Assembly (NCBI GenBank): GCA_947625765.1
Contig: CANQPP010000006.1
Span: forward strand, 8,810 to 72,809
DNA from: an uncultured Clostridia bacterium
GTDB lineage: Bacteria > Bacillota > Clostridia > Christensenellales > UBA1750
DNA length: 64,000 nucleotides
Reading direction: 5' to 3'
Positions within the stretch are counted from its first letter, which is position 1. Every line of letters begins with the position of its first letter. Positions 395 to 62,350 of this stretch are shown here, one piece after another. The notes under the pieces were generated by a model. The model ran no database searches and was not told the origin of the DNA. It saw nothing but the letters and a program-made list of their open reading frames with translations. Both the position numbers and the translations under genes were made by a program.

Positions 395-409
395 GGGTGG
401 AGGGATTCT

Positions 410-2529: not shown

Positions 2530-2535
2530 ACACCC

Positions 2536-3822: not shown

Positions 3823-3896
3823 ATGTCCTGGAATACATTATTCCCACCGACATTCTGAATGTTGCCCTTCGTAAAGGGGAAGGATCAATATCATTC

Positions 3897-5354
3897 ATGC
3901 CGAAAACGACTTCGCTCTTTTACAATTTCATATTCAATCTTATCAAGACCATCAACAGCATTCTTTTCCCGATCATCAGTTTCACCTATGCTGCCCGCGT
4001 TTTAGGCGTCGATGGGGTGGGACAGGTCAGCTTTTCAAAGTCTTTTGTTTCCTATTTTGTTATGATCGCCATGCTGGGCATGAACTATTACGGGACCAGA
4101 GAAGCGGCAAAGCGCAGGGACAACAATGAGGAACTGAGTCGTTTTTGCATAGAAATGCTGATCATAAACAGTTTCTCGACTGTATTTGCCTATTTGCTGT
4201 TGGCGGTTGGAATGCTGTGTATTCCCACTCTGCAAAGATATGAAACACTTCTCCTGATCTGTAGTATTGGCATCGTACTGCAGGGTATAGGTATGGAGTG
4301 GCTGTACCAGGCGATGGAAGACTACCGGTATATCGCTGTCCGGTCAGCTCTATTCCAGATTGTTGCGCTCATCGCTATGTTCCTTTTTGTGCGAGACGAA
4401 GAGGATGTCATCCCTTATGCGGTGATCACGCTCTTAGCTTCTTCTGGCTCATACATTCTAAACTTCTTTAATGCCCGAAAGTATGTCCATTGGCGCCAAC
4501 AAGCTCAGTACAACATTAAGAAGCACCTAAAGCCGCTACTTTGGCTATTTGCGATGACGGTATCGATCGAACTCTATACTGTATTGGATAGCACGATGCT
4601 GGGTTTCCTAAAAGGAGATACCGCGGTCGGTCTATACACAGCAGCGATCAAGGTGGAACGGCTGATAAACACACTGATCATCTCTGTAGGCGTAGTTCTG
4701 ATTCCGCGCCTTTCTTACTATGCCTCCCACCAGGAGATTGAAAAAATAATGGCGCTCAGCACGAAGGCATATAATTTTGTGTTTCTGCTTTCCGTTCCTG
4801 CGGCCGTTGGCCTTTTTCTCCTTAGTGATGAGATCATTTTACTATTCAGCGGCAGTGCGTTTTTAGCAGCTGGTTTTACCATGCGGCTTCTCACGCCGAT
4901 CGTTCTTTTGATTCCTTTCAGCGTTTTGACAAACCAACAAATCTTTATCCCTATGGGATTTGAAAAATTGATCCTAATTTCTACAGGAGTCGGAGCTATC
5001 ACCAATTTCATCAGCAACTGCGTCCTAATTCCCCTATATGCTGAAAACGGCGCAGCTATCGCAACCGTTTTTGCGGAGACGATCGTGGCGATCGTCTGTT
5101 TTCTAAATGCAAACCATTATTTCCGAATGCGGGACATTTTTAAGACATATGCTCAATACTGGATTGCTGCGCTGCCTATCGTCCCGATCGTCTTGCTCCT
5201 TAAAGCTTCTCATCTGAACTATATTCTGTATCTTGCTCTTGCTGTAGCCTTATCTGCTGTCTGCTATGTTGTTCTTCTGATCCTCATGAAAAACCCTTAT
5301 ATCCGAGAAGCACTCGGTATCGCTAAATCTCAGTTCCTAAGAAAAAGAAATTAG
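3897..5354 (+). CDS. Polysaccharide/oligosaccharide flippase (Wzx, MOP superfamily)
   Basis: 485 aa with about 12-14 hydrophobic helices. The N-terminal pattern LFPIISFTYAARVLGVDGVGQVSF is typical of polysaccharide biosynthesis (Wzx) proteins. Confidence 0.8.
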   Translation: MPKTTSLFYNFIFNLIKTINSILFPIISFTYAARVLGVDGVGQVSFSKSFVSYFVMIAMLGMNYYGTREAAKRRDNNEELSRFCIEMLIINSFSTVFAYLLLAVGMLCIPTLQRYETLLLICSIGIVLQGIGMEWLYQAMEDYRYIAVRSALFQIVALIAMFLFVRDEEDVIPYAVITLLASSGSYILNFFNARKYVHWRQQAQYNIKKHLKPLLWLFAMTVSIELYTVLDSTMLGFLKGDTAVGLYTAAIKVERLINTLIISVGVVLIPRLSYYASHQEIEKIMALSTKAYNFVFLLSVPAAVGLFLLSDEIILLFSGSAFLAAGFTMRLLTPIVLLIPFSVLTNQQIFIPMGFEKLILISTGVGAITNFISNCVLIPLYAENGAAIATVFAETIVAIVCFLNANHYFRMRDIFKTYAQYWIAALPIVPIVLLLKASHLNYILYLALAVALSAVCYVVLLILMKNPYIREALGIAKSQFLRKRN

Positions 5355-5546
5355 TCTGCCCTTTCAAAACAAGTTGGCCTGAATTAATGTTTCTTCTCTC
5401 CACAGTGGTAGATAGAATGCTATATTTAATGATTCGGTGTATCAATACATCATCAGATACCCTTTGAATCACGATCATTTAATCGGTTATTTCGCTACGC
5501 ACCCTAACACGAAATTGGACGTGTCTACAAGAAACGAGGTGCTACT

Positions 5547-6709
5547 TTGGACCTGATAAAAAACATTATTCGTCAACAAGCAGAAAAAATTCTGTCGAAT
5601 CAAAAAGCTGAAAGAAATGCAGAATTTTCATTTTTGCAAGCGGTAGCAATTTTGATGGTGGTACTTAGCCATAACAAAAGTGCCATCGGTCTGTTTGATG
5701 ATTGGTTTTGGTATTCCTCTTTTTACATGCAGCTATTTGTATTTATTTCTGGATATTTCTTTAATTTTGCGGGGGGGGGTATAGAAATTTCATTCTCTAC
5801 AAAGCAAAAAGATTGCTAGTTCCATACTATGGATGGAATCTTATATATGGTTTGGTTATAACCGTTTTGAGGCATTTCCAGATTGTGAAATATGGTGAAT
5901 CGCTGACGCTTTACAACTATCTAATTAAACCGTGGACCTTGGGAGATCAATTTGCATTCAATCGCGCTGCCTGGTTTGTTTTATCACTTTTTCTTGTTCA
6001 AGCAGTTTATGCTGGTCTATTCCTGAGTTTAAGGAAAATTCCAGTTTTTCGAGATCGACTTCTTCTGATTTTACTGATCAGCTTGAATTTCGCAACGGTA
6101 TTTTACTGCGACAATCATTCTGAGACACTTAGCGGTTTTCAATATACTTTCGGAAAACTGTTCTTTCTTTTGCCCTTTTATCATTTTGGTGTGCTGTTTA
6201 AAAAGCACGAAAGAAAGATAAAGTTTCGCCCTATCATTTTCCTTTCTGTGATTTTCACGGCACAGTTCTTCCTTTGGTGTACATACAAAGGCCAAGGTAT
6301 GGGCGTTTGGGAATGCGCTTTTCGACTCGGGAACCCATTTGCCCCATTGTTGATATCGCTTCCGGGGATCTGCTTTTGGTTATGTATTGCAAAACTGCTT
6401 CGCCCCGCATATGAAAACAGTAAGATAGTATGCTATATTGGTAAAAACACTTCAACGATCATGACACATCACCCAATAGCGTTCTTTGCCTGCAATTGTA
6501 TCATTTTGTGCTGTTCTAAGCTCTTCTCTTTGGGAAGCTTCGATACAGAAGCATTTAAAACAAATATATGGTATACCTATCTTCCAGATGGCAATTTTCG
6601 ATTTGCACTCATTTATGTTGTAATAGCGATTGCTGTACCACTGTTAATAAAATACTCAGTTGAGCAAACGACTATATGGATTTCCAGACATATAAAACAA
6701 AGCAGTTGA
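5547..6709 (+). pseudogene. Acyltransferase-3 family O-acyltransferase, split into two ORFs (5547-5819 and 5780/5813-6709) at a G9 tract
   Basis: The upstream ORF has AVAILMVVLSHN and FVFISGYFF (acyltransferase-3 N-terminal motifs). After the G run the homologous reading continues in the other frame as YRNFILYKAKRLLVPYYGWNLIYG, followed by about 10 further hydrophobic segments. Confidence 0.75.
5771..5779. repeat. G9 homopolymer inside the acyltransferase coding sequence
   Basis: Direct read: ttaattttgc-ggggggggg-tatagaa. It is the only G run of this length seen in the window and lies in AT-rich DNA. Confidence 0.95.
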
Positions 6710-6872
6710 GAAGTATATCTTGCTTTGAGGTAGGATGTGGTTTCTCAATGACAGACTCGCGGATTTATATACTCAAACAAAACCCACGATTATCTTTTAT
6801 AAGGATAAGGATTATATAGCGATACATAAACATTGAAATGCTCAAAAATTGGGGGAGCAAATAGCATAAGTT

Positions 6873-6908
6873 TGGCCACCGGTTCTGAATAAAACAGGGC
6901 CGGTGGCC
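6873..6908 (+). terminator. Hairpin at the right edge of the low-GC island
   Basis: ggccaccggttctg-aataaaa-cagggccggtggcc, an imperfect 14-bp stem. It lies 160 bp after the acyltransferase stop, where base composition changes. Confidence 0.5.
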
Positions 6909-7162
6909 TATCTTTACTCTGGCAGATTTTATGGGCGCAGTGAAAACAGTGAATATGTTTGGCTTCGTGCAAACCGTCCCTTCCCCCACAAGGTCTCTAT
7001 CTCCTCTGCCCCTCACATCGATCCTTTTTCTATCTTTTTATACAGAGCGTTTCCCTTGCCCCGCCCCCTCTTTTCTGGTATGATGTGGGAAAAGAAGCCG
7101 TTTTTCTCCTTTTTTCCCTTTCCCTCTTTTCCCCCTTCTCCCCAATAAGGAGCGTGGCAGAA

Positions 7163-28881: not shown

Positions 28882-29439
28882 TCAGGCGCGCTCCATGTAC
28901 TCGCCGGTGCGGGTGTCGATGCGGATCTTCTCGCCCTGGTTGATGAAGATGGGCACGTTGACCACGTAGCCGGTCTCCAGCGTGGCGGGCTTGGTGACGT
29001 TGGTGGCGGTGTCGCCGCGGACGCCGGGCTCGGTGTCGGTGACCTCAAGCTCCACGAAGTTGGGGGCCTCCACGGAGAAGGCGGTGCCCTTGAAGAAGCG
29101 CACGGTCACGTTGGTGTTCTCCTTGACGAAGGGGATGGCGTCCTCCACGGTGTCGTGGTTCAGGGGCAGCTGGTCGAAGGTGTCCACGTCCATGAAGTAG
29201 TACAGCTCGCCGTCGCTGTACAGGTAGGTCATTTCCTTGGTCTCGATGTTGGCGCGGGGCACCTTATCCGTGGGGTTGAAGGTGCGCTCCAAAACGGCGC
29301 CGGTCATGACGTTCTTGATGCGGGTGCGCACGAAGGCCGCGCCCTTGCCGGGCTTTACGTGCTGGAAGTCCACGATATTGAAGACGCTGCCGTCCAGTTC
29401 AATGGTTACGCCCTTGCGAAATTCTCCTGCGGTGATCAT
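28882..29439 (-). CDS. efp: Elongation factor P
   Basis: [17 protein letters not shown]...[16 protein letters not shown] (conserved KPGKG loop). 185 aa. GAGGAGG RBS. It forms the C-terminal part of the artefactual 562-aa track ORF. Confidence 0.97.
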
Positions 29440-29504: not shown

Positions 29505-30563
29505 TTACAGGGTGATCAGCTTCTTCTCGCTGTGGCTGAGCGTCTTCTGACCGTTCTCGGTCACGATGCAAAGGTCCTCGATGCGCACGCCGCCGATGCC
29601 GGGCAGGTAGATGCCGGGCTCGATGGTCACGGCCATGCCGGGCTCCAGCACCGTCTCGCAGCTCTGGGAGAGGCGCGGCGCCTCGTGGATGAGCCTGCCC
29701 ACGCCGTGGCCCAGGCCGTGGCCGAAGCAGTCGCCGTAGCCGGCCTTGGCGATGAGGTCCCTGGCCACGGAGTCCATCTCCCTGCCGGTCCTGCCGGGGC
29801 GCAGGGCGTCCAGGGCGGTGAGGTTTGCCTCCAGCACGATGTCGTAGATCTCGTGGAGCTTCTCGCTGATGGGGCCCATGGCAACGGTGCGGGTAAAGTC
29901 GGCGCAGTAATCGTCCACCTTGCAGCCGAAGTCGAAGGTGACCACGTCGCCGGTGCGGATCACGCGGTCCGAGGGGATGGCGTGCGGCAGGGAGGCGTTC
30001 TCGCCGGAGGCGGCGATGGTGGAGAAGGACAGGCCCTCCGCGCCGTGGCTGAGCATGTAGTTGTACAGCTCCAGCGCGGCCTGCTTTTCCGTCATGCCGG
30101 TCTTTAAGACCGTCAGCAGGTAGGAGAAGGCGTCGTCGGTGATGCTCTCGGCCTTCTGCATGGCGGCGATCTCGTCCTCGTCCTTGATGATGCGCAGCTT
30201 CTCGGGCAGGCCGTTCATGGGCAGCAGCTCCGCTTTTGGCATGAGCTTCTTTAGGTCGCGGCCCTCCTGGATGGTGAGCATATCCTCCTCCCAGAGGGCG
30301 GGCGCGGCGGCCTCCACAACGCTGTCGGCGATGATCTTGTTCTGGGTGAGCCCGCCGCCGGTGGACAGGATCTCCCAGCCGGGGCTCTGGCGCTGGGCCG
30401 CCTCCACATAGCGGAAGTCGGTCACGATGATGTTTCTCTTTTCCGTGACGACCACGGCGCCCTCGCCCAGGAAACCGCTCAGATAGCGCATGTTCTCGGG
30501 CTTGTGCACGATGGCCGTTCTTCCGCCCAGCTCGGCGCGGAAGCGCTGGATCCTTGTGGACAT
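29505..30563 (-). CDS. Xaa-Pro aminopeptidase (M24B family)
   Basis: Creatinase-like N-domain plus M24 metal ligands (DFGC...[15 protein letters not shown]). It sits directly upstream of efp, as with yqhT-efp in Bacillus. Confidence 0.9.
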
Positions 30564-30662
30564 AAGTCAAAACCTCCTAAGGCGGGGCGTAAATGACCCT
30601 ATAACCCTTTGTATTTTACCACAGGGGAAGCAGAAAGTAAACGCACAAAGCCGTCCTTTCGG

Positions 30663-31136
30663 CTTTTCTTATGAAAAGTCTTTGGGAAAATCCGCCTCGT
30701 TCGGGCCGAAGCGCCCCTTGGGCGGCGGTCCCGGCGCGTCTTTTCCCGCGGCCGCTTTCGTCATTTGAGGAAAGGGAAGCGCGGCGGCGGGCTTTTCTTC
30801 CGAAAATGCCATAGGAAAAACCGCCTCGTTCTGGCCAAAGAGCCCGTTTTCACCTCTCGGTGCCGCTGGAACACCTTGGCCGTTTCCAAAAAGACCGCCC
30901 TGCTGCTGGTCTTTCTTTTGAACTTCTTTGATAAAAACCGTCTCATTCGGGCCGGAGCGCCCCTTGGACGGCGGTCCCGGCGCGTCTTTCCCCACGGCCG
31001 CTTCCGTCATTTGAGGAAAGGGGAGCGCGGCGCGGGCGTTTCTTCTAAGAATGTCTTAAGGAAAACCGCCTCGTTTGGGCTAAAGCGCCCGCTTTCACCG
31101 CTCTCAACGTCTTGCGCGGCGGCTCCGGGCGGCTCT
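30663..31136. repeat. Tandem duplication of about 247 bp containing four related sub-repeats
   Basis: Sub-repeat heads lie at 30663, 30792, 30911 and 31038 (CTTTTCTT-N-GAAAA...GGAAAA-CCGCCTCGTT-GGGCC-AAGCGCC). The roughly 95-nt stretches 30696-30790 and 30943-31037 are nearly identical. Confidence 0.7.
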
Positions 31137-31838
31137 TTACTTGCCTTCCCTCTTGATGGCCTCCGTCATCTGCGCCAGGAACGCGCGGTTGCCGGGCTTG
31201 CCCTTTTCCGGCGGCACCGTGTAGCCGAAGAACAGGTGCAGGGCGGAGAGCTTTCCGTAGCGCCAGGCATGCTCGATTGCGTAGCGGATGTCCCGCTCCA
31301 CGCTTTCCGGGCGCACGCCCTTCTCTCGGGCGATGGGCCCATACACCCGAGCGCGCAGGTCCCGCAGGCGCTCCCCGTCCTGCAAACAGAGGCACAGCGC
31401 CCGCTCGATGTACTCCCTTCCCCGCAGGTGCGTAGAAAAGCCCATCTCCTGCAGGCGCTCGGCCATGCGCCGGGCGGTGGGGCCGTCGATCTGTCTTCTT
31501 CCCACAAGGTCCAAACAGGCGAAGGCCTCCTCCCAGCCTTCGCCCACCAGCGCCCCCGCAAGGGGCAGAGAGCCCCTGTCCATGCCCCTGGGCGCGCACA
31601 GCACCAGAGCGGGCGCGCCGGGCAGGGCCAGCTCGCCCAAGCGGGACAGGACCGCCGCGCCGTCTAAGAGGGGCAGCACCAGCTCACACAGGAGCGCGTC
31701 GGGCCGCTCCCGCCGGGCCTGTTCCAGCAGCTGCCTGCCGTCCAGGCAGCCGCCCAGCACGAAGCAGCCCCGCTCCCGGGCCAGCGCCTCCGCCCTTTGC
31801 AGGCTCTCCTTCCGCGCGCAGCCGATCAGCAGATCCAT
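31137..31838 (-). CDS. spo0A: Spo0A-family transcription factor with a degenerate (pseudo-)receiver domain
   Basis: The C-terminal half matches the Spo0A DNA-binding domain (HLRGREYIERAL...ESVERDIRYAIEHAWRYG...LFFGYTVPPEKGKPGNRAFLAQMTEAI). The N-terminal half aligns to a receiver, but LLCELVLPLLDG replaces L(L/V)LDIIMPxLDG. The acidic pair, the Thr and the Lys are also absent. Confidence 0.85.
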   Translation of the reverse strand: MDLLIGCARKESLQRAEALARERGCFVLGGCLDGRQLLEQARRERPDALLCELVLPLLDGAAVLSRLGELALPGAPALVLCAPRGMDRGSLPLAGALVGEGWEEAFACLDLVGRRQIDGPTARRMAERLQEMGFSTHLRGREYIERALCLCLQDGERLRDLRARVYGPIAREKGVRPESVERDIRYAIEHAWRYGKLSALHLFFGYTVPPEKGKPGNRAFLAQMTEAIKREGK

Positions 31839-31917
31839 CCCTTTTCCCCCTTCCGGCTATCATTCCAAAAGGGTTTTCTGCGCCCATCCCCCGTTTTCCT
31901 GCCGCGAAAAAGGGCGT

Positions 31918-32046
31918 TTATTGCGCCTCCAGCATCCAGTCGATGAACACGCCGTAGCCGCGCAGCGGGTCGTTGACGAACACGTGCGTCACCGCACCCA
32001 CCAAATACCCGTCCTGTATAATGGGGCTGCCGGACACGGCTGTGTC
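31918..32046 (-). pseudogene. spoIVB: 3'-terminal remnant of the spoIVB (S55 peptidase) gene
   Basis: Hand translation of the minus strand gives [42 protein letters not shown]-stop. This matches the SpoIVB C-terminus around the catalytic serine (GMSGSPII...[14 protein letters not shown]). There is no upstream coding continuation, and it lies 80 bp upstream of spo0A as in canonical synteny. Confidence 0.75.
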
Positions 32047-33604
32047 AATATAGGGACAACAACTTTCCCATCTCGTCCCGGAAGTTCCACTCGATGCGCA
32101 ACTCCCCTTCCTCCCCGATCACGATCCTGCGGATCATCTCGTGGGTCAGCGCCGGCGTCAGCGTTTGGACGGGTCGGCAGCGCGTGTCCGTTTCCGGGGC
32201 GGCCTGTTCCCCTCGCGCCCCCTTTTCCAGCTCCTTTTCCAGCAGTTCCAGTTTGAGCTTCATCGGCTCCGCATCCTTAGTCAGCGCCGCCTTGGCAGCG
32301 GAAAATTCCTCCCGGCTCAACTGCCCGCCCGCGTACTGTTCGTACAGGCGCAGCTTTTCTTCCTCTTTCCGTTCGATCCGCCGCCGGAGGGAGATACATT
32401 CCGCCCGCAGCTTGCCAAGCTCTCCCTTCCCCCGCCCCGCCCGCGGCAGCTCCGCTTCCAACAGCTGCATCTGCGCGTTCAGCGCCCGCAGCACCACCTT
32501 TTTGAGCTTTTCCTCGTCGGCCCGCACGCGGGCGCAGCCGCTGTCCGGGGCGTAGCGGCGGGTGCCGCACAGCCAGTACCGGCTCTGCGGCCTGCCCTTG
32601 GTCAGCCGCTTGCCGCAGCAGCCGCAGACGAGCAGGGAGGTAAACGGTCCCGCCTGCGCCGTCGGTGGAGACTTGCGCTTAGAGCGCACCGCCGCGCGGG
32701 CCCTTGCGAACGTCTCCCGGCTCACGATACCCTCGTGGGTGTTCGGGATGAGCTGCCTCTCCGCCTCCGGGACGGGCCGCAGCCTGCCGCTGCCCACCTT
32801 GCACACGTGCGAGCGGAAGGGCACCGTGTCGCCCGTGTAGGTCCTGTTTTCCAGTATGTTGCGGACGGACTCGTAGTTCCACACCGGCTGCACCCTGTAC
32901 CGACCCCGCACGGCGGCAAGGTACGCGGACGGCGTGGCCGTGCCGCTCTCGTTGAGCCGCCGGGCGATCTGCGTGATCGGCACGCCCTGTTCGGCCCAGG
33001 CGAAAATCTTCCGCACCACGGCGGCCGCGGGCCTGTCCACGACGATGCTGTTCTTCTTTTCCCCCTTCTTGTAGCCGTAGGGCACGGCCCCGAAGGCGTA
33101 TTCCCCGCCCAGCTTCTTTAAGTCCACCGCGCTGCGGATCTTTCTCGAGAGGTCGCGGCTGTACATCTGGTTGAGCAGGTTGCGCACGGCCAGCTCCAGC
33201 CCGCCCGTGCCGCCGTCCAGTGCCCTGGTGTCGAAGCGGTCGTTGACGGAGATGAAGCGCACATTATAAAGGGGAAACACGAGCTCCAGATACCGCCCCG
33301 CCTCTATATAATTGCGGGCAAAGCGCGAAAGGTCGCGCACCACGACCGTCCCCACCTTCCCCGCCTCGACCAGCTGCAGGAGGGACCGCATGCCGGGCCT
33401 GTCCATGCTGGTGCCGGAGGCCCCGTCGTCCACGATCTCCCGGAAGGAGCAGACGTCCAGCCCTTCCTCCTCCAGAAAGCGGCGGATGCAGGCCCGCTGG
33501 GAGGCGATGCTGCAGCTCTCGCCCGCATCGCCGTCCTCTTTTGATAGGCGCAGGTACACGATCCCCATCCGTTCAGTCGGCATGGCTCTCCTCTTCTCCC
33601 GCAT
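32045..33604 (-). CDS. Large serine recombinase (third of three)
   Basis: Resolvase domain ([11 protein letters not shown]...[30 protein letters not shown]). It also has a recombinase domain, a zinc ribbon (CGCCGKRLT...WLCGTRRY) and a coiled coil. The start is uncertain: 33604, 33583 or 33568. Confidence 0.9.
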
Positions 33605-35279
33605 TCAGCGCTTCCAGCTCCCGGAAGGGGTCGCGGCCGCGCAGCACGATGCGGATCGAGCGGTCTTTCCTTACCTCGATCCGCTCCACCAACAGGTCGA
33701 GCAAGCCGCGGTCGAGCCGGGGCAGAAGCCTGTATTCCCGCAGCCGCGCCGCCCATTCCCGCGCTTTTTTGAGCGTCACCTTTTCCGCCTTCATTTTTTC
33801 CTCCGCTTCCCTTTCTTCCCGCTGGGCTTCCGTCAGCTGCGCCTTATATCTTCCCTTCATGTAGATGTACTCGTCCCGGTCGATCACGCCCCGGGCCGCG
33901 TCCGCAAGCAGCCCCTCGAGCCTCGCCTCTATGCGCTCTTTCTTGGCCGCAAGGCCCGCCCGCGCCGTCTCGCCCGCGCGTCTGCGGGCAACCTGTCCGC
34001 GCTCGATCTCCTCAAGCAGGCGGTCAACATCCGCAAACAGGCGCAGCTGCACGTCCAGCTGGCCCTTCACCCGCTCGTGTAGCCTGTCCTGCCGCAGGTA
34101 GTGGCAGGCGCAGGCCGCCCCCTGGCTGCGGCGGTAGGCCGCGCACTCGAAGAAGATGTGGCTCTGCCCTTTGGAGCCCGCCCGCGCGCAGCCCTTGGCC
34201 GCGAGCATCGGCGCGCCGCAGTCCGCGCAGAACACCTTGCCGCGGAACAGTTCGCGGTCCTCCTGCCCGCAGCCGGGCCTCGCCCGGAAGTTTTCCCGTT
34301 TCGCCCGCCGTTCGGCGGCCACGCTCTGCGCCTTCTCGAACAGCTCCTCCGGCACGATGGCCGGGTGCGCCGCCTCGATCACCCGCCATTCGGCTTTTTC
34401 CCTTTGCCTCTTGGGCAGGCCGACACGCTCCCGGCCAAATTTGCCGTGGATGCGCTTTCCCGTGTACACCGGGTCGGAGAGCAGCTTCTGCACGGTCTCC
34501 CGCCGCCACAGCGCCGCCTCGTATTTAGGCGCCTTCGTCAGGCCCCGCAGGAAGCGCAGTCGCCCCGGGCAGGGAACGCCTTCCCCGTTGAGCACGCGCG
34601 AGATCTGGCCATAGCTTGCCCCCTCTGCCCGCATGGCGAACATCCGCAGGACCACCGGCGCGGCCTCCCCGTCCACGCGGTAGCTCGCCTTCTCCGGGTC
34701 GCGCAGGTAGCCGTAGGGCACGCTGCCGGAGGCGGGCAGGAACTCCCCCTTCTCCATCCTCGCCGAGATGCTGGAGCGCACCTTGCGGGAGATGTCCTTC
34801 ACGTAGTGGTCGTTCATCACCATCCTGAGCGGCAGCGTGAGAGCCTGGGCATCCGCGCCCTTTGCGGCGCTGTCGTAGCCGTCGTTGATGCTTATAAAGC
34901 GCACGTTCAGGGCGGGAAAGACCCGCTCCACGAGCCGCGCCGTCCGCGAAAAGTGGCGGCCCAGGCGGGAGACGTCCTTGACCAGCACGCAGCGGATTTG
35001 CCCCGCCCGTATGTCCTCCATCAGCCGCAAAAGATCCGGCCGGTCGTACCGCAGGCCGCTCCAGCCGCTGTCCGTATAGAAGTCATGCAGCTGAAGCTCC
35101 GGGTGCTCCATGAGGTAGGCGCGGGCGATCTTCTTCTGGCTGCCGATGGAGTTCTGTTCCTCATCGTCCCCGTCCTCCACCGAAAGGCGGGCGTACACTG
35201 CCGTCGGGACGGCTTTTTCGGGAAACTCTTTCCAAAACTCCGGCCTTTCCGGCCCCGTTCTCCTGCTCTTTCTCGCCAT
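33573..35279 (-). CDS. Large serine recombinase (second of three)
   Basis: VYARLSVEDGDD...SIGSQ, DSGWSGLRYDRPD, VLVKDVSRLGRH. Zinc ribbon CADCGAPMLAA...FFECAAY and a coiled-coil tail. Its ATG directly abuts the stop of the upstream recombinase. Confidence 0.9.
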   Translation of the reverse strand: MARKSRRTGPERPEFWKEFPEKAVPTAVYARLSVEDGDDEEQNSIGSQKKIARAYLMEHPELQLHDFYTDSGWSGLRYDRPDLLRLMEDIRAGQIRCVLVKDVSRLGRHFSRTARLVERVFPALNVRFISINDGYDSAAKGADAQALTLPLRMVMNDHYVKDISRKVRSSISARMEKGEFLPASGSVPYGYLRDPEKASYRVDGEAAPVVLRMFAMRAEGASYGQISRVLNGEGVPCPGRLRFLRGLTKAPKYEAALWRRETVQKLLSDPVYTGKRIHGKFGRERVGLPKRQREKAEWRVIEAAHPAIVPEELFEKAQSVAAERRAKRENFRARPGCGQEDRELFRGKVFCADCGAPMLAAKGCARAGSKGQSHIFFECAAYRRSQGAACACHYLRQDRLHERVKGQLDVQLRLFADVDRLLEEIERGQVARRRAGETARAGLAAKKERIEARLEGLLADAARGVIDRDEYIYMKGRYKAQLTEAQREEREAEEKMKAEKVTLKKAREWAARLREYRLLPRLDRGLLDLLVERIEVRKDRSIRIVLRGRDPFRELEALNAGEEESHAD

Positions 35280-36914
35280 CTAACCCGCCTCCCCGGCCCG
35301 GATCGTCCGCCTAAGCAGCTCCAGCTCGTCCCTGTAATTGAACTCCACCCGTACGCGCTTGCCCTCATACACATACACCTTGTTGATGAGCGTGGCCACC
35401 GCCTCGCGGCTCAGCTCCCGCAGTCCGCGGAACTTTAGGTACTGTTCCAGAAAGCCGCCCGCGCTGCTTGCGGACAAAAGCGCCTGCCTTTCCTCCTGCA
35501 GTCTGCGCTTTTCCGCCTCCGCCCGCTCGATGCGCGCGCCGTACTTTTGCCGCATCGCCGCGTATTCCTCCCGGTCGATGAGGGCATCTTGCAGGGCCTC
35601 GTACAGCCCCATGCGGAACTCCCTGTCCTTCTCGATCTCCCTTTCCTTTTGTTCCAGCTGCCTGTCCATCCACAGCGCGCGCATCTCATTGAAGTCCTGC
35701 ACGCCCAGCTTTTCGGCCAGCATTTCCGTTTCCGAAACCAGGTCCAGCTGCCCCTGCACAGCATGCAGCACCACCGCCTCCAGCCTGTCCTGGGCAAAGC
35801 TGTGGCTGCTGCAGCCCCTGCCCGCCTTGTGGCCGGAGCAGACGTAATAGTGGAACGTCTTGCCGCCGCGCTTAACGCTCCGCCTGAGCATGGAGCTGCC
35901 GCAGTCCGCGCAGAACAGCACCCCCGCCAGCGGCAGCACCCGCTTTTCCTCCGGCGGCCTGCGCGTATCGCGGGCAAGCAGCTCCTGCACCACGGCAAAC
36001 AGTAGCGGATCGACGATGGCCGGGTGGTTGTTGGGCACGCTGACCCACTGTGCCGGGTCGCGCTCCACCACCGTCTTGATCTTGTAGTTGGGCGTCCCGC
36101 GCCTGCCCTGCACCAAAGTGCCTATGTAGACGGGGTCCTTCAGGATGCGCTCGACCGTCACCGCCGACCAGAGGGGCGTCTCCCGCCTCTGGAAGCCGCT
36201 CTGGTAGCGGAGGGCGTTTGATTTTTTGTACGCAGCGGGCGAGGGGATCCCCCTCTCGTTCAGCCACGCCGCGATGGCGCTCTGGCTGTACCCTTCCAGC
36301 TTCATGGAAAACACGGCCCGCACCACGCCCGCGGCGCCCTCGTCGATCTCCAGCCTGTGCTTGTCCTCCTTGGACTTTTTGTAGCCGTAGCGGGCGAAGG
36401 CGCCTAAGAACTCGCCATTTGCGCGCTGCACGCGGAACTGGCTGCGCAGCTTCTTGGACAGCTCGCGGCAGTAGGATTCGTTCATGATGTTCTTGATGGG
36501 GATGAGCAGCTCGTCCCCGGCGGAACCGCGCTCGCTGTCCACGTCGTCGTTGATGGCGATAAAGCGCACGCCCAGGGACGGGAAGATCATCTCCAGATAC
36601 TTGCCCGTCTCGATGTACTCCCTGCCCAGGCGGGAGAGGTCCTTGACGATCACGCAGTCGATCCGCTTCTCTCTCGCCGCCTCCAGCACAGAACAAAAGC
36701 CGGGACGATCGTAGTTCGTTCCGGTGTAGCCGTCGTCGCAGGCCTCCCCTTCCAGCTCGATCTCCGGGTGCCTTTTGACGTACTCTAAGATCAGCTTGCG
36801 CTGATTTGCGATACTGTCGCTCTCATGCCCCGCGCCCGTCTCCCGGGACAGGCGGTAATACGCCATGGCGCGGTAGGTCTTTTTCCCCTGTTCTCCTGCT
36901 TTGCTCTCTGCCAT
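35280..36914 (-). CDS. Large serine recombinase (first of three)
   Basis: AYYRLSRETG...SIANQ, DDGYTGTNYDRPG, VIVKDLSRLGRE. Zinc ribbon CADCGSSMLRR...YYVCSGH. The start is the ATG at 36914 behind AAGGAGG; the ORF extends to 36971. Confidence 0.9.
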   Translation of the reverse strand: MAESKAGEQGKKTYRAMAYYRLSRETGAGHESDSIANQRKLILEYVKRHPEIELEGEACDDGYTGTNYDRPGFCSVLEAAREKRIDCVIVKDLSRLGREYIETGKYLEMIFPSLGVRFIAINDDVDSERGSAGDELLIPIKNIMNESYCRELSKKLRSQFRVQRANGEFLGAFARYGYKKSKEDKHRLEIDEGAAGVVRAVFSMKLEGYSQSAIAAWLNERGIPSPAAYKKSNALRYQSGFQRRETPLWSAVTVERILKDPVYIGTLVQGRRGTPNYKIKTVVERDPAQWVSVPNNHPAIVDPLLFAVVQELLARDTRRPPEEKRVLPLAGVLFCADCGSSMLRRSVKRGGKTFHYYVCSGHKAGRGCSSHSFAQDRLEAVVLHAVQGQLDLVSETEMLAEKLGVQDFNEMRALWMDRQLEQKEREIEKDREFRMGLYEALQDALIDREEYAAMRQKYGARIERAEAEKRRLQEERQALLSASSAGGFLEQYLKFRGLRELSREAVATLINKVYVYEGKRVRVEFNYRDELELLRRTIRAGEAG

Positions 36915-37044
36915 AAAAGCCAAACCTCCTTGAAATCCAGTTCTATTCTCAAGGGGCTCTGCCTCCGGCATCCGTCCTCATCGACCACATACAAAAAAGT
37001 ATGCCTCCCTGCGGCCTTCCCTGTCAATAACGCAAGACGAATTG

Positions 37045-37290
37045 TCACAAATTCCCAGCGGGCCCGGACAGGCTGCGGGCGTAGGAGAGGAGCCTGTCCT
37101 GCAGCGTGACGGAGGTGTCCGCATAGCCGATCTCCACCACCACGCCGTCGTCCAGGTAGCGGTAGGGGTCGCCGATCTGCCTTATGTAATCCCGCAGCCG
37201 CTCCTCCCGCGGGCGGCTTACATCGATCGAAACGTCCCGTATGTCGCGGAGTTCTGCCCTGTCAAGCGCCCGCGTTCCATCCTTCTCCAT
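37045..37290 (-). CDS. Small hypothetical protein leading the recombinase gene string
   Basis: 81 aa. A strong RBS (GGAAGGAGG) lies 8 nt upstream of the ATG. It has the same orientation as the recombinases and sits 130 bp upstream of the first one. Confidence 0.6.
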   Translation of the reverse strand: MEKDGTRALDRAELRDIRDVSIDVSRPREERLRDYIRQIGDPYRYLDDGVVVEIGYADTSVTLQDRLLSYARSLSGPAGNL

Positions 37291-41006: not shown

Positions 41007-42404
41007 ATGCAGAAGATCAGACGCAAACCAAAACTGAACGACTCGCTCAACAACATCACCGAGGGCGTGCTCTGGAAGCAGATGCTGCTCTACTTCTTCC
41101 CCATCCTGCTGGGCACCTTCTTCCAGCAGCTGTACAACACGGTGGACGCCGTGATCGTGGGCAACTTCGTGGGCACGCAGGCGCTGGCCGCCGTGGGCGG
41201 CGGCACCGGCACGGTGATCAACCTGCTCGTGGGCTTCTTCGTGGGCCTGTCCTCGGGCGCCACGGTCATCATCGCCCAGTTCTACGGGGCCGGCAAGCAG
41301 AAGGAGACCAGCGACGCGGTGCACACCTCCATCGCCCTGGCCATCTACGGCGGCCTGCTGTTGACGGTGGTGGGCCTGGCCATCTCCCGTTTCAGCCTGC
41401 GCCTGCTGGGCACGCCGCAGGAGATCGTGAACGACTCCCTCACCTATATGCGCATCTACTTCGCAGGCACGGTGTTCTCCCTCATCTACAACATCGGCTC
41501 CGGCGTGCTGCGCGCCGTGGGCGACTCCAAGCGCCCCTTGTATTTCCTCATCGTCTGCTCCCTGACGAACCTCGTGCTGGACCTGGTGTTCGTGCTCTTC
41601 TTTCGCTTAGGCGTGATGGGCGTGGCCCTTGCCACCATACTCTCCCAGGCCGTGAGCGCAGTTTTGGTGCTGGTCACCCTCATGCGCAGCGAGGCCAGCT
41701 TCAAGCTCTACTGGCGGCGCATCCGCCTGCACTTTCACCTCCTTAACCGCATCGTGACCATCGGCCTGCCCGCGGGCCTGCAGTCGGTGATGTACTCCGT
41801 CTCCAACCTCATCATCCAGGCCTCGGTCAACTCCTTCGGCACCAACACCATGGCCGCCTGGACCGCCTACAGCAAGCTGGACGGCCTGTTCTGGATGATC
41901 ATGGGCGCCTTCGGCGTCACGGTCACCACCTTCGTGGGCCAGAACTTCGGCGCCCGCAAGTACGACCGCATGAAGCAGAGCGTGAGGACCGGCCTGTGGA
42001 TGGCCTTCGGCTCCTCCATCGCCGCCAGCGCGCTGGTGCTGCTGCTGGGCCGCTACGCCCTGAGCCTGTTCACCCACGACGCGGACGTCATCCCCATCGG
42101 GATGCAGATCGTGCGCACGATCATCCCCTTCTACTTCACCTACGTGTGCATCGAGCTGCTCTCCGGCGCCATGCGCGGCACCGGCGAATCCTTCATCCCC
42201 ATGCTCATGACCTGCTTCGGCATCTGCGTGATGCGCGTTGTGTGGATCTTCGTGGTGGTGCCCCGCTTCAACACCATCTCCGTGGTGGCCGCCAGCTACC
42301 CCATCACCTGGGCCGTCACGTCGGTCATGTTCATCATCTACTACCTCTCCGGCCGCTGGCTCAAGAAGCACGTGCCGAAGGAGGACTTGGAGCTCATCAA
42401 GTAA
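41007..42404 (+). CDS. MATE-family efflux transporter
   Basis: 465 aa, 12 TM. N-terminal LWKQMLLYFFPILLGTFFQQLYNTVDAVIVGNFVG is typical of MATE/NorM proteins. Confidence 0.9.
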   Translation: MQKIRRKPKLNDSLNNITEGVLWKQMLLYFFPILLGTFFQQLYNTVDAVIVGNFVGTQALAAVGGGTGTVINLLVGFFVGLSSGATVIIAQFYGAGKQKETSDAVHTSIALAIYGGLLLTVVGLAISRFSLRLLGTPQEIVNDSLTYMRIYFAGTVFSLIYNIGSGVLRAVGDSKRPLYFLIVCSLTNLVLDLVFVLFFRLGVMGVALATILSQAVSAVLVLVTLMRSEASFKLYWRRIRLHFHLLNRIVTIGLPAGLQSVMYSVSNLIIQASVNSFGTNTMAAWTAYSKLDGLFWMIMGAFGVTVTTFVGQNFGARKYDRMKQSVRTGLWMAFGSSIAASALVLLLGRYALSLFTHDADVIPIGMQIVRTIIPFYFTYVCIELLSGAMRGTGESFIPMLMTCFGICVMRVVWIFVVVPRFNTISVVAASYPITWAVTSVMFIIYYLSGRWLKKHVPKEDLELIK

Positions 42405-53778: not shown

Positions 53779-54900
53779 CTACTCGAACCACTTACGCTTC
53801 TTGCCCCCGGCCTTGCCGCCCATCGCCTCGTCGAAGGCGTGCAGCGCCTGGCGCTGCTTCTCGTTGAGCCTCTTGGGCACCTCCACCTTCAGCGTGACCA
53901 GCAGGTCGCCCCTCGCGCCGCCGCGCAGGGCGGGCACGCCCTGGCCCTTGATGCGCAGGACGGTATCCGGCTGTGTGCCCTCGTAGAGCGTCTCCTTCAC
54001 GGGCTCGCCCTGCAACACAGGGATCTCGATCTCGCCGCCCAGCGCTGCCTGGGCGAAGGAGATCACCTTCTCCGTGTACAGCGTCTGCCCGTCGCGCTTG
54101 AAGTCGCGGTTGGGCTTTACGTCGATGCCGATGAACAGGTCGCCCGCGGGGCCGCCCTTGCGGCCGGGCTCGCCCTCGCCGCGGAGCGTGAGCATCTGCC
54201 CCTGGTCGATGCCGGCGGGCACGGTCACGGTGATGTTCCTCTGCCGCCGCTCGGTGCCCCGGCCACCGCACTTTTCGCAGGGCTGTTCGATGATCTTGCC
54301 CTCTCCCTTGCAGGTGGGGCAGGGTCTGGACGTCTGGAAGCGCCCGAAGGCGGTGTTCTGCACCTGGGTCACCTGGCCTGTGCCGTGGCACTGGGGGCAG
54401 GTCTTGGGCTGCGTGCCCGCCTTGGCGCCGGTCCCGTGGCAGCTTTCGCAGTTTTCGTTGCGCAGGATGGAGATCTCGCGCTTGCAGCCGAAGACGGCCT
54501 CCTCAAACTTGAGGCTGATGTTGTAGCGCAGGTCCGCGCCCCTCTCGGGGCCGCTGCGCTGCCTGTTGCCGCCAAAGCCGAAGCCGCCGCCGAAGGCCCC
54601 GCCGAACAAGTCCTGGAATATATCGCCCACGTCGCCCGAAAAGCCGCCGAAGCCCTGGCCGTAGCCGCCGCCCATGCCCGGCTCCTCGTGGCCGAACTGG
54701 TCGTATCTCTGCCGCTTCGCGGGGTCGGACAGCGTCTCGTAGGCCTCGTTGACCTCCTTGAAGTTGGCCTCCGCCACCTTGTCGCCGGGGTTCAGGTCCG
54801 GGTGATACTTCTTCGCCAGCTTGCGATAGGCGCTCTTGATCTCCGCGTCCGACGCGCCCTTGTCCACGCCCAAAACCTCGTAATAATCACGCTTGGCCAT
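53779..54900 (-). CDS. dnaJ: Molecular chaperone DnaJ
   Basis: [12 protein letters not shown]...KKYHPD J-domain, a G/F-rich linker, and four CxxCxGxG zinc-finger repeats. Confidence 0.97.
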
Positions 54901-55033
54901 CCGCCGCTTCTTCCTCTCCGGCCGGGGAGCCGCCTTGCCGATGAAGGCGCCCGGCCCGCTGTTTGCTCATGCGTCCAAAGGGCGCGCGGAGTTTTCCCCC
55001 GCGCGTCCGTTTGGCACTTACTGCTTGTATTTC

Positions 55034-56938
<1,905 letters not shown>

Positions 56939-56984
56939 TTATGCTCGTCGTCCCTTCCTTATGAAAGGAACGGGTCTTTTGTCC

Positions 56985-57578
56985 TTACTTTGCCACCTTC
57001 ACCATGGCGTAGCGGATCACCTTGCCGCGCACGGAGTAGCCGCTCTGGAACACCTCCATCACGGTTCCGGCCTCGTTTTTTTCGTCCGCCTCGCCGGTCA
57101 TGACGGCGTTGTGCATCTCCGGGTCGAAGGGCTTGCCCTTTTCGCAGGGCACCTTCTCCATCCCGAGCTTGGCAAGGGCGTCCATCATGCCCTTTAAGGT
57201 CATCTCAACGCCGGAGCGTAAGGGGCTTTCCTCGTCGGAGGCCGCCAGCGCCCGCTCCAGGTTGTCGAGCGTGGGCAGCAGTGCCAGGACGCTCATGCGC
57301 ACGCCCTCGTCCTCGGCGTCGGTGCGCAGGGTGGCGTTGCGCTTGCGGTAGTTGTCGAACTCGGCCTGCACGCGCTTGGCCATGTTCAGGTACTCGTCCC
57401 GCTGGGCCTTGGTCTCCTCGAACTGGCGCGAGGCCTCCTCCAGCTGTTTGCGGTCCACGGTGATGGTCTCGCTCTGCTGAGTCTCCTTCGGTTCGTTGGG
57501 CTGCTCGGCCGTTTCGGTCGGAGCTTCCTTCTCGGGCTGCTCCTCCGGCTTTACGGCCTTGTCCTTATCCTTCTTCAT
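56985..57578 (-). CDS. grpE: Nucleotide exchange factor GrpE
   Basis: Acidic/Lys-rich N-terminus, RVQAEFDNYRKR, and a C-terminal beta domain (HNAVM...GY...GKVIRYAMV). Confidence 0.95.
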   Translation of the reverse strand: MKKDKDKAVKPEEQPEKEAPTETAEQPNEPKETQQSETITVDRKQLEEASRQFEETKAQRDEYLNMAKRVQAEFDNYRKRNATLRTDAEDEGVRMSVLALLPTLDNLERALAASDEESPLRSGVEMTLKGMMDALAKLGMEKVPCEKGKPFDPEMHNAVMTGEADEKNEAGTVMEVFQSGYSVRGKVIRYAMVKVAK

Positions 57579-58599
57579 GGTGGGGATCCTCCCTCCTGTT
57601 GTTGGTTTCCTGCAGGGCCCTGCGCATGGCGTCCAGAACGGAGAGCACGCGGCCGTACTGCATGCGGGTGGGGCCTATGACGCCCATGGTCCCCACGCCG
57701 CCCCCGTCGCCCAAAGCGTAGGAGACGGTGACCAGGGAGCAGTCCTGCATGCCGGGCAGCTGCAGCTCCGGCCCGATGGTGACGGAGAAGGAGAGCCCCG
57801 CCCGCTGGGCCAGCAGGCTCGCCAGCTTCTCCTTGGTCTCCAGCGTGGAGAGCAGGCTGCGCGCCCGCTCGATGTCGCTGTATTCCGGGTGGAACAGCAG
57901 CTTGGACGTGCCGCCCACCACCACGGAGCTCTTGTCCGGCTCCATCTGGCGGTGGAGCGTATCCATGAGTCGCATGAACAGCGCCCGCTGCCCCTCCGTC
58001 TCGCCTAAGATCTCCGGCAGGGCGGGGAGCATCTGGTCCAGCGTCTTGCCGGAAAGCCGGTCGGTCAGGTAGTTGGAGAGCATGTACAGCTGGTCCGGCC
58101 CCACGTCCGCGGGCACGGGGATCATGGCGTCCTTGTGCACGCCGTTCTCCATCACGGTGACCATCAGGGCCGTATTGTCCGTGATGGGCACCAGCTGCAG
58201 CCTCTTTAAGCGGCCCGCGCTGGGGGCCAGCATCACGCCGGTGTAGTCCGTCAGCTCCGACAGGGCCCGCGTGGCGGCGGTGAGCACGTCCTGCACCGAG
58301 TCCATCGAGCTTTGGAAGATCTCCCGCAGCTTCGCGTTCTCCTCCGCGGGCAGGCTGGCCACGCGCATCAGCTGGTCCACGTACAGCCGGTAGGCCCGCC
58401 AGGAGGGCACGCGGCCCGCGCTGGTGTGGGGCTGGTCCAGGTAGCCCAGCTCCTCCAGGTCGCTCATCTCGTTGCGGATGGTGGCGGAGGAAAGGCCCAT
58501 CCCGTACTTCTTGGATATGGTCCTGGAGCCCACGGGCATGGCCGTCAGTATGTAGTCGTCGATGATGGCCTTGAGTATCTTGTATTTTCGCGCGTCCAT
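57565..58599 (-). CDS. hrcA: Heat-inducible transcription repressor HrcA
   Basis: MDARKYKILKAIIDDYILTAMPVGSRTI winged-helix N-terminus. The start is set at 58599 because the longer ORF would run through the CIRCE operator. Confidence 0.95.
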   Translation of the reverse strand: MDARKYKILKAIIDDYILTAMPVGSRTISKKYGMGLSSATIRNEMSDLEELGYLDQPHTSAGRVPSWRAYRLYVDQLMRVASLPAEENAKLREIFQSSMDSVQDVLTAATRALSELTDYTGVMLAPSAGRLKRLQLVPITDNTALMVTVMENGVHKDAMIPVPADVGPDQLYMLSNYLTDRLSGKTLDQMLPALPEILGETEGQRALFMRLMDTLHRQMEPDKSSVVVGGTSKLLFHPEYSDIERARSLLSTLETKEKLASLLAQRAGLSFSVTIGPELQLPGMQDCSLVTVSYALGDGGGVGTMGVIGPTRMQYGRVLSVLDAMRRALQETNNRREDPHHEEG

Positions 58600-58633
58600 A
58601 TCCACTTGGGCATCCTTCCTTTCCCGCCGTCTT

Positions 58634-58660
58634 GTTAGCACTCATCCCGGTCGAGTGCTA
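58634..58660 (-). promoter_or_regulatory. CIRCE operator (HrcA binding site) upstream of hrcA-grpE-dnaK-dnaJ
   Basis: A perfect TTAGCACTC-N9-GAGTGCTAA read directly at 58634-58660. Confidence 0.92.
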
Positions 58661-58729
58661 ACCACAGTCATAACGATAGCACCCATGAGGTAGAATGTCA
58701 AGGGTGTACATCAAAAATTCACGCTTTCG

Positions 58730-59572: not shown

Positions 59573-60087
59573 TTCGTCTCCTCCAGCGTGAAGGCCCAGC
59601 GGCAGCCGCGCGTTTCCCCCTCGTCCGGGTAGCAGAACAGGCAGCGGCAGGATATCCGCTCGTCGATCGTCTTGGCGAACACCTCGTGCTCCACCTGCCC
59701 CACGGGTTTGCAGGGGTGCAGGGGCAGCCCCTTGCGGGCGCGGGCCTCCTGCACGCGGCAGGTCTCGACCGAATAATAAAGGGTGTCGCCCCGCCTTTCC
59801 AGGCTGCACGTGTTGGCCTGCCAGGCAAAGCGCAAGGGCAGGGCCTTTTCCAGCCCCTCCAGTCCGCAGCGCTCGGGCAGGCGCAAAAAGGCGCGGATGC
59901 GCCGCGCTTCCGTGGCCGAAAAGCGCCGCCAGGCCTCCGCGTCCAGGGCCATGGCGGCGTCCATGCCTTGCCTTCCCTCCGCCGCCTGGAACCAGACGCC
60001 GTCCAGCGCCAGCAGGTTTTTATCCTTGATCTGAATGAGCTCGACCAGCTCCTCCTTCGTAAAGGAGGAGAGCGCGTTTTTGTCCAT
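59569..60087 (-). CDS. Conserved hypothetical protein with a Cys-rich C-terminus
   Basis: 172 aa starting MDKNALSSFTKEELVELI... behind GGGAGGT. C-terminal CRCLFCYPDEGETRGCRW. It begins 2 nt after the recF stop. Confidence 0.6.
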   Translation of the reverse strand: MDKNALSSFTKEELVELIQIKDKNLLALDGVWFQAAEGRQGMDAAMALDAEAWRRFSATEARRIRAFLRLPERCGLEGLEKALPLRFAWQANTCSLERRGDTLYYSVETCRVQEARARKGLPLHPCKPVGQVEHEVFAKTIDERISCRCLFCYPDEGETRGCRWAFTLEETK

Positions 60088-60089
60088 CC

Positions 60090-62278: not shown

Positions 62279-62350
62279 GGGTGCCATTCCTCCTTATACT
62301 CATAAACTCTCTGTCGTGCGGATGTTTCTATATTATTAAGTGATGGGGCT

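Follow-up and report, generated by a model that had tools for sequence, protein, structure and literature searches.

Spo0A phosphorylation counts as the trigger of endospore formation wherever it occurs, and spo0A serves as a marker that predicts which gut Firmicutes sporulate. As known from Bacillus subtilis, Geobacillus stearothermophilus and Clostridioides difficile (TIGR02875; structures 1QMP, 1FC3 and 1LQ1), canonical Spo0A joins a receiver to the DNA-binding domain Spo0A_C. Atypical (aspartate-less) response regulators (ALRs) most commonly carry Glu in place of the phosphorylatable Asp (26%), and most retain residue 1 of the acidic triad (65%) and likewise the pocket Lys (70%) (Maule et al. 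2015, PMC4395418). Our search of the literature found no described ALR with a Spo0A_C output, and no description of a natural Spo0A that is Asp-less, has a pseudo-receiver or acts independently of phosphorylation. Here we analyse a 64,000-nucleotide stretch of DNA from an uncultured Clostridia bacterium (contig CANQPP010000006.1; hereafter the window) that carries a spo0A-like gene, immediately beside a broken spoIVB, whose product P0001 combines a Spo0A effector domain with a receiver stripped of its phosphotransfer residues. The explanation that we favour, and consider probable if well short of certain, is that P0001 is a Spo0A orthologue with a pseudo-receiver maintained throughout a small, uncultured, Christensenellales-related lineage, and that selection on it has been relaxed or changed in this particular strain. 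The gene and its parts are as follows.

31137..31838, minus strand: spo0A-like gene (P0001), pseudo-receiver plus Spo0A_C (open reading frame; Pfam, NCBIfam and PDB matches; AlphaFold2; Foldseek)
31494..31838, minus strand: pseudo-receiver domain, residues 1-115, a (β/α)5 fold with helix α4 of about 3 residues, without acidic pair, Thr/Ser or Lys-Pro
31155..31460, minus strand: Spo0A_C DNA-binding/transactivation domain, residues 127-228 (Pfam, PDB, alignment, Foldseek)
31683..31685, minus strand: codon GAG of Glu52, at the phospho-acceptor position, which reads CTC on the plus strand

The reading frame opens with ATG behind a ribosome-binding site (RBS), and the peptides quoted in a preliminary description of this gene (MDLLIGCARKE, LLCELVLPLLDG, LVLCAPRG, ESVERDIRYAIEHAW and LFFGYTVPPEKGKPGNRAF) are all present in its product. 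That description held the effector domain to be intact, and every comparison agrees: Spo0A_C (PF08769) matches over 102 of its 104 profile positions at 83.8 bits (gathering threshold 25; E=9.5e-24), phmmer against PDB finds the effector domains 1fc3 and 1lq1 at E about 1e-15 (7.9e-16 for 1fc3), and Foldseek superimposes the C-terminal half on 1lq1/1fc3 with template-modelling (TM) scores of 0.87-0.91 and a root-mean-square deviation of 1.5-2.0 Å. Residues E181, R182 and R185, invariant or nearly so across 40 Spo0A sequences, align with E213, R214 and R217 of the B. subtilis recognition helix, which contact bases of the 0A box in structure 1LQ1; the numbering was checked against a B. subtilis Spo0A sequence. 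Because the Spo0A fold and the recognition-helix residues are kept, 0A-box-like DNA binding and transcription regulation are most likely retained. P0001 is also shorter than Spo0A, as had been noted, with 233 amino acids (aa) against 255-265 aa in the canonical matches, a difference that comes from the reduction of helix α4 to about three residues and from a shorter linker. Against TIGR02875, the NCBIfam equivalog for Spo0A, it reaches 96.2 bits, below the cut-off of 200.

The receiver is a different matter. Response_reg (PF00072) scores 24.3 bits, under its gathering score of 30.2, and the match is restricted to residues 16-80, so that the acidic-pair region of strand β1 and the β4-β5 switch regions fall outside the profile alignment. 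P0001 also matches the solved Spo0A receivers 9phz_E (B. subtilis) and 1dz3 (G. stearothermophilus) in phmmer, in ungapped alignments that set its RPDALLCELVLPLLDG onto DPDVLVLDIIMPHLDG, so that Glu52 takes the place of the acceptor Asp and Ala82 that of the conserved Thr. The AlphaFold2 model from a 40-sequence alignment (mean predicted local distance difference test score 89) has a receiver-like (β/α)5 fold, with β1 at residues 2-6, β3 at 48-52, β4 at 77-82, β5 at 96-100 and a helix α4 of about three residues, followed by the Spo0A_C helices; Foldseek compares its N-terminal half with receiver domains at TM 0.7-0.8, and Glu52 stands at the C-terminal end of β3. In no register does the protein offer an acidic residue after β1 (G6-C7-A8-R9), a Ser or Thr at the end of β4 (C81-A82-P83), or a Lys or Arg after β5 (E100-G101-W102), and its signature columns read C-A-E-A-W-E against the canonical D-D/E-D-S/T-K-P. 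The preliminary description had proposed just this, namely a receiver fold that persists although the acceptor Asp has become Glu and the acidic pair, the conserved Thr and the Lys-Pro are gone, and the alignments and the model uphold each of these points. It had left room for another register that would supply an acceptor Asp; neither the alignments nor the AlphaFold2 model allow one, given that D47 and D59 are the canonical ‘PD’ and ‘LDG’ Asp residues and that β3 ends at E52. Alignment, AlphaFold2 and Foldseek agree on a receiver fold without a phosphorylatable Asp, and we predict from its residues that this receiver is incapable of canonical phosphotransfer. By the same evidence P0001 would be classed as an ALR with a Spo0A effector, and as a divergent Spo0A variant rather than a regular member of the family, because both the receiver signature and the equivalog score fall short of those of the family.

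Relatives of P0001 are rare. A search of 5.8 billion proteins returned only four, to which a profile search added one (P0002-P0005, 36-58% identity), and only five clusters score above 286 bits among the 5.8e9 proteins before the score falls to 146 bits, the level of canonical Spo0A. The picture was the same when 1.8 billion representatives were searched exhaustively with HMMER, and this search contributed the remoter members P0062, P0068 and P0072, which are alike in their effector signature. Genome collections were scanned with clade-specific patterns, and the genome matches are uncultured Clostridia and metagenome-assembled genomes of Christensenellales/Christensenellaceae, some of them apparently from termite guts to judge from isolate names. 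The clade profile also gives high scores to P0053, P0054, P0055, P0059, P0060 and P0067 from uncultured bacteria, a family of receiver-less, multi-effector Spo0A-like proteins with 2-4 Spo0A_C domains in tandem.

In the alignment, neither the acidic pair nor the Lys-Pro is present in any of P0001-P0005, L011, P0062, P0068 and P0072, whose acceptor is D, E or Q. The signatures below give, in order, acidic 1, acidic 2, acceptor, Thr, Lys and Pro.

P0001 (window): CAEAWE
P0002: CADAWE
P0003: ARDAWD
P0004: AGQSLE
P0005: CADTQP
P0062: AREGAP
Canonical Spo0A: D[DE]D[ST]KP

The acceptor is Asp in the sister lineages P0002, P0005 and P0003 and Gln in P0004, and Glu arose independently in P0062; since the sisters have Asp, the D52E replacement of P0001 is derived. 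Selection in the relatives has been purifying. The spo0A-like genes of L002 and L005 differ by 8 synonymous and 0 non-synonymous changes, and ω (dN/dS, the ratio of non-synonymous to synonymous divergence per site) is 0.08 between L002 and L008 and 0.19 between L001 and L011 (0.25 for the N-terminal and 0.13 for the C-terminal domain). In these relatives spoIVB, with its GALGH and GMSGSP motifs intact, gives ω of 0.075-0.09, and P0062 (Glu acceptor) and P0051 (Ser acceptor) both adjoin an intact spoIVB. Because the loss of receiver residues is clade-wide and coexists with purifying selection on both the gene and spoIVB, we read it as an ancestral, maintained state of the clade. The possibility that the missing acidic pair, Thr and Lys-Pro are private decay of P0001 accordingly has to be given up. 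An acceptor that varies freely under purifying selection suggests, moreover, that proteins of this clade do not depend on Asp phosphorylation, and D52E is best explained as one more tolerated acceptor state, not as the event that killed phosphorylation.

These comparisons bear directly on the idea that P0001 is a constitutively active phosphomimic, with Glu52 imitating aspartyl-phosphate in an otherwise signalling-competent receiver so that Spo0A is locked on. A Glu at the acceptor does activate some regulators, NtrC for example (cited in PMC4395418), and it is not confined to P0001: among the nearest 172 full-length Spo0A-like representatives, a sample biased towards the query, the acceptor is Asp in 145, Glu in 16 and another residue (S, Y, N, Q or H) in 8, with 3 gapped. 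We nevertheless regard such a protein as very unlikely here, as the machinery of the switch is absent (the Thr/Ser at β4, the Lys-Pro at β5 and helix α4 of the α4-β5-α5 face), the Asp-bearing sister proteins share the degenerate pocket, and D-to-E alone does not suffice to activate Spo0A (PMC4395418). Many of the non-Asp-acceptor proteins among the 172 representatives keep the remaining pocket, as in the signature DPESKP.

The position of the gene argues for orthology. In all eight relatives examined it lies directly 3' of an intact spoIVB (PDZ plus Peptidase_S55), and in the nearer relatives it is followed by the gene for an M24 Xaa-Pro peptidase (pepP) and then efp, in the same order as in the window:

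29505..30563, minus strand: Xaa-Pro aminopeptidase (M24), conserved downstream neighbour (domain and synteny)
28882..29439, minus strand: efp (elongation factor P), conserved downstream neighbour, 98.9% aa identity to L008

The relative L008 is collinear with the window from the spo0A-like gene to about position 20,000, by way of efp and glgA/D/C/B, and in the window a remnant of spoIVB stands 80 bp upstream of the spo0A-like gene, which thus occupies the canonical place directly 3' of spoIVB. From this shared locus we take the gene to be the syntenic spo0A orthologue (spoIVB–spo0A–pepP–efp) and not a stray paralogue. Were it a minor paralogue, a canonical spo0A would lie elsewhere in the genome and P0001 would be a diverged duplicate with another role. 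Spo0A_C paralogues, and stand-alone or multi-domain Spo0A_C proteins, are indeed common in uncultured Clostridia, and Glu-acceptor proteins are not all linked to spoIVB (P0063 and P0080, which may be paralogues, lie elsewhere). A second canonical copy had been named as the finding that would reduce P0001 to such a paralogue; the search for one, which covered the 64-kb window, found no other Spo0A_C. This result, the canonical position in the window and in 8 of 8 relatives, the annotation of the relative P0003 by NCBI as ‘hypothetical protein’ and, as weaker evidence, the lack of any named canonical Spo0A match attributed to Christensenellaceae together make a paralogue highly improbable in our judgement. 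A MatE gene at 41007-42404 is probably not the orthologue of the MatE upstream of the relatives' spoIVB, the two being only 38-39% identical.

Upstream of the spo0A-like gene, the window departs abruptly from its relatives.

31918..32040, minus strand: spoIVB 3' remnant, the last 40 codons and stop, from the codon before the catalytic Ser (..V-S-G-S-P-I..) (homology)
32037..32065, minus strand: element/chromosome junction, where the terminus TGTTGTCCCTATATTGACACAGCC abuts GTG-TCC-GGC-AGC of spoIVB (junction alignment)
32045..33604, minus strand: large serine recombinase 1, 519 aa (Pfam Resolvase, Recombinase and Zn_ribbon_recom)
33573..35279, minus strand: large serine recombinase 2, 568 aa (Resolvase, Recombinase and Zn-ribbon)
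35280..36971, minus strand: large serine recombinase 3, 563 aa (Resolvase, Recombinase and Zn-ribbon)
37045..37290, minus strand: DUF6870 gene, the last part in common with related elements (domain; the core genes PHP, HIT, mtaB and rsmE come next)

Homology of spoIVB to the relatives extends as far as about 32036-32040, where the codon just ahead of the catalytic Ser is reached (between ..G-M and S-G-S-P..), and the junction restored in silico would read ..GGCATCGTGCAGGGC followed directly by ATGTCCGGC... The remnant reads THVF for THVY and NDPL for NDPT at positions that are invariant elsewhere. An identical junction of recombinase, remnant and spo0A in L007, a contig from an independent ENA assembly, shows that this junction is no assembly artefact. 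The preliminary description called spoIVB destroyed, which is right insofar as only its last 40 codons are left; the gene has not eroded, however, but was cut cleanly by the insertion of a site-specific serine-recombinase element. A tblastn search of the whole window found nothing of SpoIVB residues 1-386, and the two halves of the gene do not flank the element here: to the right of DUF6870 stand the core chromosomal genes PHP, HIT, mtaB, rsmE, sbcCD, mscL, dnaJ-dnaK-grpE-hrcA and recF-dnaN-dnaA, and synteny with L008 is broken at that point. The presence there of dnaA-dnaN-recF, hrcA-grpE-dnaK-dnaJ, sbcCD, rsmE and mtaB rules out the region right of the recombinases as the cargo of one large element, and the element in the window looks truncated after DUF6870. 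From the missing residues and the broken synteny it would follow either that the remaining element and the 5' part of spoIVB were deleted or moved or that the assembly bridged the contig across a repeated element; under either account spoIVB is interrupted at its active site. As SpoIVB is left without everything upstream of its catalytic Ser, sporulation is probably disabled in this strain. A second near-match to the motif of the element terminus (2 mismatches) lies at 56977-56995, between dnaK and grpE, and is probably there by chance.

The break has many counterparts. Homologues of recombinase 1 (41-59% identity) are found on metagenome and viral contigs and on a GenBank ‘Bacteriophage sp.’ scaffold, and at least 27 of them are followed about 20-150 bp on, in the same orientation, by a fragment covering SpoIVB residues 387/388-424. 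In the junction alignment of the window with loci drawn from L025-L081 (at least 28 besides the window), the conserved terminus ..TGTTGTCCCTAyyTGACAcaCTC abuts xTG-(AGC/TCC)-GGN-AGC-CCN in the window and in 28 of 28 loci; the codon, the orientation and the terminus are the same in all, as for site-specific insertion. A canonical spo0A follows the SpoIVB fragment in L028 and L045 and in none of the other loci. Some Clostridia carry spoIVB paralogues, and these might be the reason for fragments that no spo0A follows. Upstream, the related loci carry cargo of a mobile-element type (DUF3854, PIN, ParM-like, HTH, UmuC/YolD and MazF), and the similarity of the window to them stops at DUF6870. In no related locus does the 5' half of spoIVB lie within 10 kb of the recombinase, which suggests that intact elements are large, and from none of them was the other junction recovered; on viral contigs, a SpoIVB N-terminal profile gave no confirmed matches for that junction and a GGIVQGM-coding pattern found intact spoIVB genes only. 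A literature search found no paper with both ‘spoIVB’ and ‘serine recombinase’, and the codon of the catalytic Ser looks like an undescribed target of site-specific integration. Insertion there would be a concrete mechanism for strain-level loss, and possibly switching, of sporulation, one that recurs in many gut and termite-gut Clostridia.

The window lineage also stands apart in its rate of change. Three-taxon estimates from the window, L008 and L009 give the following branch values of dN.

spo0A-like gene: window 0.25-0.26, L008 0.12
M24 peptidase gene: window 0.086, L008 0.095
glgA: window 0.040, L008 0.046
efp: window 0.002, L008 0

The dN of the spo0A-like gene is thus 2.2 times higher on the window branch than on that of L008 (95% bootstrap 1.4-3.8), and the neighbouring genes show no such asymmetry between the branches. 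With a branch dS of about 0.22-0.24, ω comes to about 1.1 for the window and about 0.5 for its sister. At clade-invariant sites P0001 has five private changes (A112V, L132M, L209P, T216G and L228I) and its sister one, and L209P and T216G are unusual replacements for the effector domain, T216 being nearly invariant across Spo0A. The acceleration, these two replacements and the cut in spoIVB, taken together, again suggest that sporulation has probably been disabled in this strain, with the regulator under relaxed or changed selection.

Much of this would be expected under pure decay, in which spoIVB is destroyed, sporulation is lost and spo0A is functionless and en route to a pseudogene, with D52E as part of the erosion. 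A spoIVB reduced to 40 codons, ω of about 1.1 with a dN 2.2 times that of the sister, the non-conservative L209P and T216G at clade-invariant effector sites and the altered invariant positions of the spoIVB remnant all speak in its favour. The reading frame does not. Stop codons would be created by 3.3% of single-base changes in the spo0A-like gene, so that neutrality predicts about six nonsense changes over roughly 176 substitutions; the 233-codon frame has none, and no indel relative to the sister. The RBS and a promoter-like motif are intact as well, the recognition-helix residues are unchanged and the structure model is confident. Nor can the missing receiver residues count as evidence of decay, because relatives in which purifying selection acts on both the gene and spoIVB had already lost them. 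We therefore think pure decay unlikely, though it is the rival with the most to commend it, and read the gene in the window as being under relaxed or altered selection with its frame still maintained. Of the two possibilities raised in the preliminary description, a decaying Spo0A and a phosphorylation-independent one, each appears partly right at a different time depth, since only D52E and the 2.2-fold acceleration are specific to this lineage and the pseudo-receiver is maintained across the clade.

How would such a regulator work? Without a Mg2+-binding acidic pair, a Thr/Ser switch and a Lys-Pro, and with helix α4 shrunken, canonical His-to-Asp phosphotransfer is very unlikely across the whole clade. 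Activity is probably set by the amount of protein, that is, by expression, and binding of a partner or ligand to the remodelled receiver may conceivably contribute. Control at the level of expression would fit a sigma-H-like promoter motif that is conserved upstream of the gene:

31875..31900, minus strand: sigma-H-like motif AGGAAAA-N12-GCAGAAA, 37-62 nt upstream of the ATG (suggestive, defined post hoc)

The pattern AGGAWHH-N10-14-RNNGAAD, which was defined after the sequences had been viewed, occurs upstream in 5 of 8 clade loci (the window, L001, L006, L011 and L022) against a mean of 0.07 and a maximum of 2 in shuffles, and we regard it as suggestive of a sigma-H-like promoter. A more adventurous proposal is that Spo0A of this clade still governs endospore formation but has no phospho-switch, so that sporulation would be entered without a phosphorelay or Spo0A kinase, for instance through sigma-H-driven expression or a partner of the remodelled receiver, and that a widespread family of elements with three serine recombinases, attaching at the catalytic-Ser codon of spoIVB, acts as reversible or irreversible sporulation switches in gut Clostridia; taken jointly, these two ideas strike us as possible but doubtful. 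Christensenellales contain both predicted sporulating and predicted non-sporulating members (PMC11536998, PMC12536801).

Several points weigh against the explanation that we favour. Most members of the clade keep the acceptor Asp, and for them unconventional phosphorylation, with other metal ligands for example, may be possible. The AlphaFold2 model drew on an alignment with canonical Spo0A sequences in it, a bias towards a receiver-like result. The dN/dS values come from the Nei-Gojobori method, applied at high divergence and under strong GC bias at third codon positions, and are rough, for which the comparison of neighbouring genes on the same branches is a control, and ω of about 1 on the window branch could equally reflect positive selection. 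The 64-kb window holds no other sporulation-specific gene that would show persistence of the pathway, and other parts of the genome may carry a second, canonical spo0A, kinases or the missing half of spoIVB; exact-protein look-ups of the open reading frames at the two ends of the window found no record that would extend it. Finally, the 0A-box core TGTCGAA, which occurs 12 times in the window where 5.1 would be expected (a count attained in 0 of 100 shuffles), is uninformative about targets; the sites are mostly intragenic, and none lies in the spo0A-like promoter.

Other features of the window are recorded here for completeness. The 570-bp spacer between the spo0A-like and M24 genes, which in relatives measures only about 120 bp, contains at 30658-31103 a tandem duplication of about 245 bp (84-87% identity) with sub-repeats of about 129 bp; the repeat has no further copy in the window and no Rfam match, and an Rfam scan of the whole window found no family. 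Positions 1-7000 form an island of low GC content (42-45% against about 64% elsewhere) with genes for polysaccharide synthesis (a GT2 glycosyltransferase, a Wzy-type O-antigen ligase/polymerase and a Wzx/MurJ-type flippase), which was probably acquired horizontally. At 53779-63697 the origin region (dnaA at 62351-63697, dnaN and recF) is separated from hrcA-grpE-dnaK-dnaJ by a single HAD hydrolase gene. In spore formers a gpr-spoIIP-lepA-hemN block usually precedes hrcA, and its absence from that place here fits either rearrangement or the loss of sporulation genes.

If the regulator is functional, this lineage would show that a master regulator can be rewired to phosphorylation-independent control, and it would stand as an exception, found in nature, to the triggering of sporulation by phosphorylated Spo0A. 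A maintained, apparently non-phosphorylatable Spo0A at the canonical locus would surprise specialists in sporulation. Surveys based on markers would score such genomes as spo0A-negative, because proteins of the clade fall below the curated Spo0A threshold (96 against 200 bits; P0003 is a ‘hypothetical protein’).

Set beside canonical Spo0A, P0001 is alike in its architecture of receiver plus Spo0A_C, in its effector fold (TM 0.87-0.91), in the E/R/R of the recognition helix, in its position directly 3' of spoIVB and, suggestively, in the sigma-H-like motif upstream. It is unlike canonical Spo0A in lacking the acidic pair, the Thr/Ser and the Lys-Pro, in an acceptor that is Glu here and D/E/Q across the clade, in the near deletion of helix α4, in its short linker (233 against about 260 aa) and in its score of 96 bits against 200. 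Even the effector has signatures of its own in this clade, where canonical HIKGY corresponds to H(L/M)RG, VERAIRHAIEVAW to VERDIRYAIExAWRYG and KPTNSEFIA to KPTNRAFLAQ. With ALRs such as ChxR, HP1043, RitR, FrzS and GlnR, P0001 has in common a receiver fold without a phosphorylatable Asp, a DNA-binding output and, presumably, action independent of phosphorylation; it differs from most of them in that acidic-triad residue 1 and the pocket Lys are both missing and in that its output domain is Spo0A_C.

The element in spoIVB, for its part, invites comparison with skin, whose recombinase SpoIVCA acts in sigK, and with SPbeta, whose SprA acts in spsM. It differs from these in its target, spoIVB, in its three tandem recombinases with DUF6870, and in that the other half of the gene and the remainder of the element are missing from the window. 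Expression of spoIVB takes place in the forespore and not in the mother cell. Among transposons with serine recombinases (TndX of Tn5397 and TnpX of Tn4451), TndX is 31% identical to recombinase 1. UmuC/YolD-type cargo is also found in SPbeta-type phages, a likeness to the related elements described here. In common with skin and SPbeta, the spoIVB element splits a sporulation gene and carries large serine recombinases at its end, and, as with elements of that type, its insertion takes place at one precise, conserved site in many genomes.

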